Shown here in pieces: positions 51,077 to 53,240 of a stretch of DNA of 64,000 bases; within the stretch, counting starts at the first letter, position 1, and each line of letters starts with the position of its first letter. The position numbers were made by a program, and so were the translations under genes. The notes beneath the pieces were generated by a model that saw only the letters and a list, made by a program, of their open reading frames with translations, was not told the origin of the DNA and did not search any database. The DNA comes from Planctomycetota bacterium (GTDB taxonomy: Bacteria > Planctomycetota > UBA1135 > UBA2386). Location: NCBI GenBank assembly GCA_965228735.1, contig OZ245838.1:4416001-4480000 (forward strand), read 5' to 3'.

Positions 51077-51331
51077 TCACTCCGAGGGCAGGCTGGAGTG
51101 GGTGCCGTCGCAGAACGGGGCATTGCCAGTCGCGCCGCACGCGCACCACACGACGGTCTGGTCCTTCTCGAGCACGACTTTGAGCGGAGTCGTGTCCGTA
51201 CCGCGATGGGTACCGTCGCACAGTGGGTAGCTCGCACTGCTGCCGCACCGGCACCACGCGTGCTTGCCGGCCGCGCAGCGCATCACGAACGGGCCGCGTT
51301 GGCGCCGGCCCGGCGGTTCTTGATCGACCAT
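51077..51331 (-). CDS. Two-domain CDGSH iron-sulfur protein (MiNT/CISD3-like)
   Basis: WCRCGSS..YPLCDGTH and WCACG.T.NAPFCDGTH. Confidence 0.93.
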   Translation of the reverse strand: MVDQEPPGRRQRGPFVMRCAAGKHAWCRCGSSASYPLCDGTHRGTDTTPLKVVLEKDQTVVWCACGATGNAPFCDGTHSSLPSE

Positions 51332-51403: not shown

Positions 51404-52030
51404 TCAGCGGAACCGCCGCACCACACCGCGCACGACGCCGCGGATCTGCACGTTGTCGGTGAAGATGGGCTCCATGCTCGCGTTGGCCGGCTGCAGTCGG
51501 ACGAGGCCGTTGCGCTCGCGGTAGAACCGCTTGAGCGTCGCCTCTTCGTCCTCGAGCACGGCGACGACGATGTCGCCGTCGCTCGCCGTCTCGCGCCGCT
51601 CGACCACGACGAGGTCGCCGTCGTCGATGTGGTCCTCGATCATCGACTTGCCGCGCACGCGCAGCAGGTACATCTGATCGCCGGTCGGCACGAGGTCGGT
51701 GAGGCTGACCTCCTCTCGATCCTCGAGCGCGTCGATCGGCCGACCGGCCGCGATCATGCCGACGAGCGGCAGGCTCGGGATCGCCTCGGGGCCCGCCGCA
51801 TCCGGCTCCGCGTCGGGATCGTGCAGGATCGCGACCGCGCGCGCCTTGGCCCGGTCCCGATGGATCGCCCCCTTGCGATTCAGCTGGTTGAGGTGCTCGT
51901 GCACCGTGATCTTGCTCACGCCTAGCGCCTTGGCCGCTTCGTCCAGCGTCGGCGAGATGCCGCGTTCGCGCCGGTAGTCGCGGAAGTAGCGAAGCACTCG
52001 AATCTGCTTCTCCGTAAGCATCAACTCCAT
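51404..52030 (-). CDS. lexA: Transcriptional repressor LexA
   Basis: LTEKQ..wHTH (SPTLDE..SKITVHEHL..L.RKG), cleavage site IAAG, catalytic Ser (GKSMI) and Lys (TLKRF), LQPAN. Confidence 0.96.
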   Translation of the reverse strand: MELMLTEKQIRVLRYFRDYRRERGISPTLDEAAKALGVSKITVHEHLNQLNRKGAIHRDRAKARAVAILHDPDAEPDAAGPEAIPSLPLVGMIAAGRPIDALEDREEVSLTDLVPTGDQMYLLRVRGKSMIEDHIDDGDLVVVERRETASDGDIVVAVLEDEEATLKRFYRERNGLVRLQPANASMEPIFTDNVQIRGVVRGVVRRFR

Positions 52031-52121
52031 GGCAGTCCCTCCCGTTCAATCGAGCAGAGGTGGATTGACGCGACTTCGGAGGTACCGCCCGACCGCAGCC
52101 ACGTCGTCATCGTGCGCACGT

Positions 52122-52154
52122 GTTCTGGTTCCGTTATGCGAACAAAGCCAGAAC
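52122..52154. promoter_or_regulatory. Candidate LexA operator: GTTC-N7-GTTA and GAAC-N7-GAAC in inverted arrangement
   Basis: GTTC tggttcc GTTA tgc GAAC aaagcca GAAC, about 90-125 bp upstream of lexA. Confidence 0.6.
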
Positions 52155-52469
52155 CACGATTGCGGCCATGAGCATACAGGATCCGATCAGCTCGATGGAA
52201 TGACGAATCCGCTTGGCTGCAAAGGCGTTGGCAGCACCGTCGTCGAACTCCGAACACCGGCTCACCGGAGCGTCTCGCCGCGGCGTCGTGTCGAGCACCA
52301 TCGGACCGCGCTCCCCAACCCGAGCAGCGGCCGGAGCACGGGCCGCAACACCGGCCCGATCACGCAACCCGTCCAGGGACCAGCGCTTGCCCTTGCCGTT
52401 CGGCAGGATGGCCGCGGTCTGCGAACGGGCGTCGGCGAACGGCAAACGGTGTTGGCGGGCGAACTTCAT
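52134..52469 (-). CDS. Small hypothetical protein with C-terminal TM helix, upstream of lexA
   Basis: 111-aa ORF ending LIGSCMLMAAIVVLALFA*; codon usage is atypical, and the true start may be the internal Met (MVLDTT). Confidence 0.5.
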   Translation of the reverse strand: MKFARQHRLPFADARSQTAAILPNGKGKRWSLDGLRDRAGVAARAPAAARVGERGPMVLDTTPRRDAPVSRCSEFDDGAANAFAAKRIRHSIELIGSCMLMAAIVVLALFA

Positions 52470-52522
52470 GGCGATCTTCCGTGGGGTTGCTGCGTGGGGA
52501 GGGACCAAAGGCTGCCCGAGCT

Positions 52523-52570
52523 GTTCGGCTCAGGTTCGGAGCAGGTTAGGGTTGTGTTCGCCAAACGCAA
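52523..52570 (-). promoter_or_regulatory. Sigma70-like promoter (TTGCGT-N16-TAACCT) overlapped by a four-half-site GTTC-N7 array (candidate LexA boxes)
   Basis: Plus strand GTTC(52523)-N7-GTTC(52534)-N7-GTTA(52545)-N7-GTTC(52556); -35 at 52565-52570 and -10 at 52543-52548 on the minus strand. Confidence 0.7.
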
Positions 52571-52694
52571 CCCGAATCTCGATTTCGCGAGAGCAGAATC
52601 CCCCGCCCTCCAGGGGATGGACGAAATCTTGTCCGGGGCGAACAGTTGACGCTGCCGCGCCATGCGGTCGCCTGCTTCGAAACGCCTGCTCAGG

Positions 52695-53240
52695 ATGCCA
52701 CGTCCGACCGAGGAACTGCGCGCCGACCACGCGGTCGTCGCATCCGGTCTCGCCGTGCTCGGCGCGATCGCGAATCACGTGCGCGACGGCCACGCGTTCC
52801 CGACCGACGACGCTGCCGTCGTGCTGCGGTTCCTCCGCGAGTTCGTCGTCGGTACGCACTTTCGGAAGGAGAACGAGATCGTGTGGCCGGCCATCGCGAT
52901 GCGCGCGGCCGACGCCGAGGCCACCGCCGTCGGCCAGCTCATGGCGGCGCAGGACGCGGCCCACGACCTGGTCCAGAGCCTCGTGTTCTTCTGGGAACCG
53001 GCCGGCGAGCTCACCGAGCCGGAGCGGCTCGGGTTCGCCGACACGGTCGCCGCATTGCGCGCCGCGATGGCGCAGCTCCAGGCCGACGAAGAACGGCTGT
53101 TTCTGAGCTGCGATCGCGTGGTGCCGGCCGACGACCAGCTCGACTGGTCCGAGCGGTTCGCCGAGCTCGAAGCCGAACGCGCGGTGCGGGGTGAGTGGCA
53201 GCAGCTGCTGCGGCCACTCAGCGCGCGCTGGATCGCCTGA
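52695..53240 (+). CDS. Hemerythrin-like domain protein with degenerate metal ligands
   Basis: EELRADH, GTHFRKENEIVWP, EERLF pattern; all-helical. Confidence 0.8.
   Translation: MPRPTEELRADHAVVASGLAVLGAIANHVRDGHAFPTDDAAVVLRFLREFVVGTHFRKENEIVWPAIAMRAADAEATAVGQLMAAQDAAHDLVQSLVFFWEPAGELTEPERLGFADTVAALRAAMAQLQADEERLFLSCDRVVPADDQLDWSERFAELEAERAVRGEWQQLLRPLSARWIA

Follow-up and report, generated by a model that had tools for sequence, protein, structure and literature searches.

A candidate direct-repeat SOS box and an overlooked small membrane-protein gene at the lexA locus of a planctomycete

The lexA gene of this planctomycete lies in a window of 64,000 nucleotides (the whole stretch of DNA that was analysed, whose numbering is used below unless genome coordinates are given), and the phased GTTC words in front of it raise the question of which operator LexA reads in this lineage and which genes are placed under its control. 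In this regard, a planctomycete LexA is reported not to read the E. coli box (PMC3108266), and GTTC-N7-GTTC is described as the LexA box of Alphaproteobacteria, as in Caulobacter (PMC9578287, PMC8565304, PMC3323433). An initial annotation of the locus had proposed that a Planctomycetota LexA binds an alphaproteobacterial-like direct repeat here, possibly oligomerising cooperatively along an extended run of four sites in exact phase, with a second cluster of sites just upstream of lexA.

The assignment of the regulator agrees with both its residues and its relatives. Pfam and TIGR00498 matches, above the curated cut-off, define a winged-helix domain and an S24 peptidase; the cleavage site (Ala79-Gly80) and the dyad (Ser129, Lys167) are intact; the recognition helix reads GVSKITVHEH, thus containing the annotated SKITVHEH; and the named close relatives are mostly Planctomycetota. 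With this query the genome yielded no other lexA. Directly downstream, on the same strand, is a small gene for a CDGSH iron–sulfur protein (51077-51331, minus). A hemerythrin-domain gene diverges from the operator region (Table 1), and a divergent homologue occurs at 56 of the 68 related lexA loci, these being the 80 relatives minus 12 Chloroflexota loci that were left out.

On rechecking, every coordinate of the annotated array, of its TTGCGT-N16-TAACCT promoter and of the proximal words matches the sequence. GTTC at 52523, 52534 and 52556 and GTTA at 52545 stand in exact 11-bp phase, and one of these four half-sites is the -10 hexamer itself. A consensus sigma-70 promoter scan passes no site at the lexA promoter, and an Rfam search of 51900-52800 gave no non-coding RNA match. 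Resampling of the 660-bp region by dinucleotides gave the four-phase array in 0 of 100,000 cases and a single pair in 3.9%; moreover, the whole 7.19-Mb genome contains only two four-phase GTT[CA] arrays. The other one, a GTTC array with letters similar to those at lexA, sits at the 3′ end of a gene and outside any evident promoter (G000 6406258-6406294; L161). The bare GTTC-N7-GTTC word, on the other hand, is not enriched genome-wide, with 347 copies vs 297-389 at control spacings of 1, 3, 4, 6, 9, 10, 12, 13 and 15, such that the case for a box rests on its conservation.

Table 1. Positions of the features at and around the lexA promoter, with weaker candidate sites elsewhere in the genome (genome coordinates).
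Feature	Position	Strand	Remarks
lexA, 208 aa	51404..52030	-	TIGR00498 172.9 bits vs cut-off 110.95; Pfam
Proximal cluster	52122..52154	.	Small ORF end, stop codon, 12 bases beyond
Unannotated ORF, 111 aa	52134..52469	-	First gene of likely ORF-lexA operon
Predicted single membrane helix, last 20 codons	52137..52196	-	Ends at C-terminus; from hydropathy
QHRLPF, residues 6-11, predicted sliding-clamp-binding motif	52437..52454	-	
Second operator CGAAC-N6-CGAAC (candidate)	52522..52538	-	Predicted transcription start; position varies in relatives; 16.2 bits
Predicted -10 hexamer TAACCT	52543..52548	-	Also serves as half-site
Core operator CGAAC-N6-CTAAC (candidate)	52544..52560	-	Promoter spacer and -10; conserved; 16.4 bits
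Predicted -35 hexamer TTGCGT	52565..52570	-	TTGACA in many relatives; below consensus-scan threshold
Hemerythrin-domain gene, divergent from operator region	52695..53240	+	PF01814; start may be 52662
Weaker candidate sites	G000 2584864, 703847, 6374074, 667666		

The promoters of related lexA genes were anchored on their -35 and -10 terms only, which makes the footprint count that follows non-circular, and 57 of 67 rows (this window included) reached the anchor score. In 51 of these 57 promoters an AAC is placed ten bases ahead of the -10, compared with 0-4 at other positions of the spacer, with the proviso, here as in all counts below, that related genomes are not independent. The conserved core is CNAAC-N6-CNAAC, with an 11-bp period, running across spacer and -10. 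The N7 geometry of the annotated repeat stands and its letters need loosening, the half-site being not strictly GAAC. The TTG of the -35 is nearly invariant. Of 61 family genomes, 27 contain exactly one copy of a composite pattern of promoter plus box, every time at lexA (27/27), and reversed controls contain 0; the pattern was derived from these same relatives, and hence what counts as evidence is that it is unique, not that it is present. Another candidate for a common motif, a palindrome of the form GTTC-N3-GAAC at the -35, was set aside, being present in part of the relatives only. The downstream N7 pair is found in 33 of 51 relatives, at offsets from +8 to +15 (+11 in 8, +12 in 15, others in 10), and is absent in 18. 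The shift by one base in 15 relatives and the absence in 18 fit two separate dimer sites, and the sequences are therefore better read as two such sites that happen to be in phase in this genome.

The words of the proximal cluster (GTTC 52122, GTTA 52133, GAAC 52140, GAAC 52151) are all present, in pairs that score 10.6 and 6.1 bits. They are explained, however, by the codons and stop of a small ORF: GAAC-N7-GAAC (52140-52154) is the reverse of the codons V-L-A-L-F and is kept in 11 of 66 relatives, and the pair overlapping the stop codon is kept in none of the 66. The suggestion that LexA is bound here is accordingly not sustained, and on sequence grounds the cluster is probably not an operator. 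Separately, an extra direct-repeat site of at least 10 bits lies between the small ORF and lexA, just ahead of the lexA ribosome site, in 29 of 67 loci (L009, L019, L023, L024, L027, L036 and others); the window's own site in this interval reaches only 6.1 bits.

The reach of the box beyond lexA was followed with a scoring matrix built solely from the lexA sites of 51 relatives. Among non-coding sites genome-wide, this matrix puts the promoter of imuA-imuB-dnaE2, whose gene identities were confirmed, at rank 1 (19.0 bits) and recA at rank 21; a refined matrix pointed to mrfA-mrfB. With the lexA-only matrix and a locus-specific null (p<0.05), the box is present at 30 of 31 recA, 26 of 30 mrfA and 7 of 27 imuA family loci, where the sets are the loci returned from 55, 52 and 26 genomes with a match, respectively, and each includes the locus of this genome. 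At recA, imuA and most mrfA loci the box is reversed relative to lexA (it is forward at two mrfA loci), as one would anticipate for a repressor site, in contrast to a promoter element. The sites of recA and mrfA, moreover, keep a fixed distance from a TA-N3-T element. Of the promoters that the initial annotation had named, those of lexA, recA and imuABC thus carry the motif, joined by mrfA, and uvrA falls away (ranks 2903 and 3469 of 5326); dinB is likewise without a box (rank 4114 of 5326). Both uvrA genes encode tandem-fused double UvrA proteins, of 2022 and 1637 aa (G000 1185870-1191935 and 5260743-5265653). In place of the box, several of the 20 imuA loci without one have either another lexA gene or a palindrome of different sequence. 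Many family members have one or the other: a second, divergent lexA inside the imuA-imuB-dnaE2 cassette, which forms its own clade in an 85-row quick tree, or, at the imuA promoter, a palindrome of the GGACA/AGACA-N2-TGTC type. Loci with one or the other are L174, L176, L184 and L186 (L187), and L167, L169 and L185, where L185 has both motifs. Many top matrix sites in the genome adjoin non-repair genes. Weaker candidate sites (Table 1) precede Ku-ligD (the Ku site recurring in only 2 of 6 relatives' loci), nrdR (14.9 bits), a lysine-rich histone-like gene, whose site recurs in 2 of 5 relatives within A-rich sequence near the ribosome site, and a nuclease gene of the ATP-cone/Mrr type. The gene calls behind these ranks come from a simple caller, which missed the small ORF and will have missed others. 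Taken with the conservation at lexA, the repeat at the recA and other repair-gene promoters is very likely a LexA-binding site.

The distribution of the box among planctomycetes follows the type of LexA. The LexA of this window belongs to a group with a recognition helix shortened by one residue, GV[ST]K[IV]TxxEH. In other families a significant site lies upstream of lexA in 19 of 32 short-helix loci (GV[STN]K[IV]T) against 0 of 30 canonical-helix loci, and the corresponding counts for recA are 7 of 18 and 0 of 12, the two groups having been drawn by different searches and containing kin that are not independent; within the short-helix group, 13 of 32 lexA and 11 of 18 recA loci have no significant site. 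Across the Planctomycetota sequences compared, therefore, the box co-occurs with one LexA clade. In the 43-row tree, on which the placement of this LexA is based (the 85-row tree serving as a quick tree only), the short-helix LexAs group together in a single clade (100/98) that leaves out the two alphaproteobacterial LexAs; that the two groups are sisters, with these two alphaproteobacterial rows, is not rejected (p-AU 0.316). Other apparent lexA boxes occur in loci L189-L218, from other planctomycete families, among them GAAC-N4-GTTC-type palindromes (L194, L195, L212) and CACACATATGTGTGG (L210, L211).

Comparison with characterised systems separates the geometry of the box from its ancestry. 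The alphaproteobacterial box is similar in being a direct repeat of 11-bp period with a near-identical half-site, placed at lexA, recA and imuABC; it differs in that the half-site here, CNAAC, admits G, T or A and takes a variant form, TTAC, at recA. The protein differs too, in its separate clade, its shorter helix and its short linker: the alphaproteobacterial combination of an SKSG[IV]HRL helix and a long linker is not found in this LexA, which has SKITVHEH and a linker of 40 residues (clade median 37, vs 60 in the one alphaproteobacterial protein measured; 65 of 85 rows covered). The description of the repeat as alphaproteobacterial-like holds for the N7 spacing only; the repressor, for its part, branches outside the two alphaproteobacterial LexAs in the tree. 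A long linker was also tried as the cause of direct-repeat binding and was rejected, the medians being 37 and 35 residues. The Bacillus box, CGAAC-N4-GTTCG (PMC9578287), shares the half-site CGAAC, and the helix here keeps the S-x-x-T-V-H-x-H-L pattern of Bacillus LexA (SSSTVHGH there); the Bacillus box is, however, a palindrome, where a head-to-tail repeat is found here. The simplest reading of these sequences is that the half-site has been kept while the geometry changed from palindrome to direct repeat. Such changes have precedent, since direct-repeat LexA boxes are described as having arisen independently several times (PMC7739468). The same source contains an EMSA-tested box of Balneolaeota, which resembles the present case in its direct-repeat geometry and in a small regulon centred on translesion synthesis and differs in its letters; it also references boxes in Acidobacterium and Patescibacteria, and, as far as its main text goes, does not mention Planctomycetes. 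A search of open-licence papers gave no description of this box for Planctomycetota. Direct-repeat SOS boxes as such are already known, and what appears to be new is this box in Planctomycetota and the small gene beneath it, the former probably being one more case in which a palindromic box independently became a direct repeat while retaining its half-site.

The region between the promoter and lexA is not an untranslated leader. It contains a conserved ORF, unannotated hitherto, which begins 79 nt from the -10 and encodes an N-terminal clamp-type motif, a low-complexity A/R/P/S linker and a C-terminal hydrophobic helix. A hydrophobic C-terminal stretch recurs in the ORF of 66 of the 68 related lexA loci, the exceptions being one locus without upstream DNA and one Phycisphaerales locus without the ORF. 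Identity by codon position (0.60/0.79/0.48 for the last 20 codons, pairwise over the first 46 rows) is the pattern of a protein-coding sequence. The helix is predicted by hydropathy alone, the last 18 residues having a mean value of 2.65. Searches of Pfam, NCBIfam and Atlas features gave no match to the product, and hence no sequence family in common with SidA, YneA or SosA; a literature search of open-licence papers found no description of the small gene. Short hydrophobic peptides before lexA also occur in other families, at 12 of 32 short-helix vs 1 of 30 canonical loci, where they have 26-30 residues and no clamp motif, which makes the predicted membrane helix the old core of the protein. 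The similarity to SidA, YneA and SosA, described in PMC13396833 and PMC9578287, lies in small size, a single membrane helix (here predicted) and a place under a LexA box, to which can be added that yneA, like the small ORF, adjoins lexA. In contrast to those genes, the ORF is upstream of lexA on the same strand, not divergent, and is without a LysM domain; it also differs in its clamp-type motif and in a host family without detectable ftsZ (0 of 61 genomes). This genome does contain two FtsW/RodA genes and ftsK, and known SOS membrane inhibitors act on FtsW (PMC13396833). On this basis a checkpoint on the division or wall-building machinery is the best guess for the role of the helix, and is put forward tentatively, at rather less than an even chance.

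The N-terminal motif opens a further possibility. Among 65 ORFs, 32 have a QxxLP[FL]-type word (Q-x-x-L-(x)-[FLY]), for the most part at residue 5-6, against a mean of 2.7 and a maximum of 9 in 1000 shuffled controls, and the other 33 are without it; where present, it is near-fixed in position within an N-terminus that is otherwise unalignable. Within the first 30 residues, a similar word is rare, being found in 32 of 5326 called proteins; the ImuB and DinB proteins encoded here also have one. Compared with the hexapeptides of Hda and Pol IV (bioRxiv 10.64898/2026.05.27.728225), the motif has the same Q1, L4 and hydrophobic residue 6, often Pro5, and the same modelled pocket. It fits the published clamp motifs, Q-phi-x-L-F or Q-phi-x-L-x-L, except at position 2, which is His here and is often polar and not aliphatic in relatives; it is also carried differently, on a linker and membrane anchor with no enzyme domain. 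A complex model with the genome's own DnaN scored 0.65 vs 0.02 for the best control and placed residues 3-12 in the conserved DnaN pocket, with runs agreeing in at least 53% of contacts and a partner pLDDT of 48-50. The mark for a pass was attained by 116 of 157 solved pairs and by 2 of 215 mismatched ones. Clamp–peptide complexes are well represented among solved structures, such that this pass may reflect likeness to them. On balance the modelling and the motif slightly favour binding of the sliding clamp by the N-terminus. Literature look-ups did not find a clamp motif on this protein.

The reading that best accommodates these observations, and one that is held with high confidence on the sequence comparisons, is that the distal array consists of two direct-repeat LexA operators on a promoter that likely drives an operon of the small membrane-protein gene followed by lexA. 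The two CNAAC-N6-CNAAC operators would cover the spacer, the -10 and the predicted start. From established LexA biology, LexA dimers would block the sigma-70 polymerase until RecA filaments trigger LexA self-cleavage, and this would free lexA and recA at the same time as the mutasome and MrfAB, the excision pair. Of the genes so freed, the first would make a tail-anchored membrane protein, whose helix may act on the division or wall machinery, as SidA and YneA do on FtsW, and whose N-terminal motif may bind the sliding clamp.

Other readings of the box have been weighed. ECF -35 elements often contain AAC, a half-site coincides with the -10 and the standard sigma-70 scan finds no promoter, all of which would suit AAC words that serve an alternative sigma factor, of the ECF type, as promoter elements and are not operators. 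Promoter elements are directional, however, and the box changes direction from locus to locus (reversed for recA, imuA and mostly for mrfA, forward for two mrfA genes); the -35, in turn, retains a nearly invariant TTG, with TTGACA in many relatives, and such an origin is very improbable. That the repeat is bound by another damage regulator (of the WYL PafBC/DriD kind, or an XRE protein like DdiA), with LexA sharing its targets, is also improbable: LexA-independent damage regulators do exist, and the fixed distance to TA-N3-T at recA and mrfA would accord with one, but the box tracks the helix type of LexA across families (19/32 vs 0/30), and at the lexA operon it overlies both the -10 and the start, in opposite orientation, in keeping with an autorepressor site and not an activator site. 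The annotated idea that LexA binds both clusters and polymerises cooperatively along the four sites draws on phasing beyond chance in this genome, on a proximal pair whose 10.6 bits could mark a weak site, and on the sites before lexA in 29 of 67 loci. It is quite unlikely nevertheless, as just 8 of 51 relatives keep all four sites in exact phase, codons account for the proximal words and the window's own intergenic site is weak.

The small protein admits a simpler account in which only the membrane helix matters, as in a SidA-like inhibitor or small toxin, and QxxLP[FL] is no working clamp motif. Such an account is a serious contender, at somewhat under an even chance, since other families keep just the hydrophobic peptide before lexA, half of the ORFs compared here (33 of 65) do without the motif, and hexapeptides bind some clamps weakly (bioRxiv 10.64898/2026.05.27.728225); it leaves aside the near-fixed position of the word, its rarity early in called proteins and the docking of residues 3-12 in the pocket. 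The fullest proposal, that FtsZ-less planctomycetes possess a LexA-repressed, tail-anchored checkpoint gripping the clamp with its N-terminus and the division or wall machinery with its helix, is, when taken as a whole, rather unlikely, and is given here for what it would imply.

What emerges for the phylum is a testable SOS box and regulon (the lexA operon, recA, imuABC and mrfAB) for a large part of the Planctomycetota. The overlooked first gene matters more than the box. The mode of division of FtsZ-less planctomycetes is an open question (PMC10632474), and a membrane peptide encoded before lexA is a natural probe for the machinery involved, while a clamp-docking version of it would be a new kind of connection between replication and the membrane. 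If the clamp-gripping checkpoint were true, it would hold replisome clamps tethered or sequestered at the membrane, which is a mode not described for SOS inhibitors, and would provide a ready-made bait for the planctomycete divisome.
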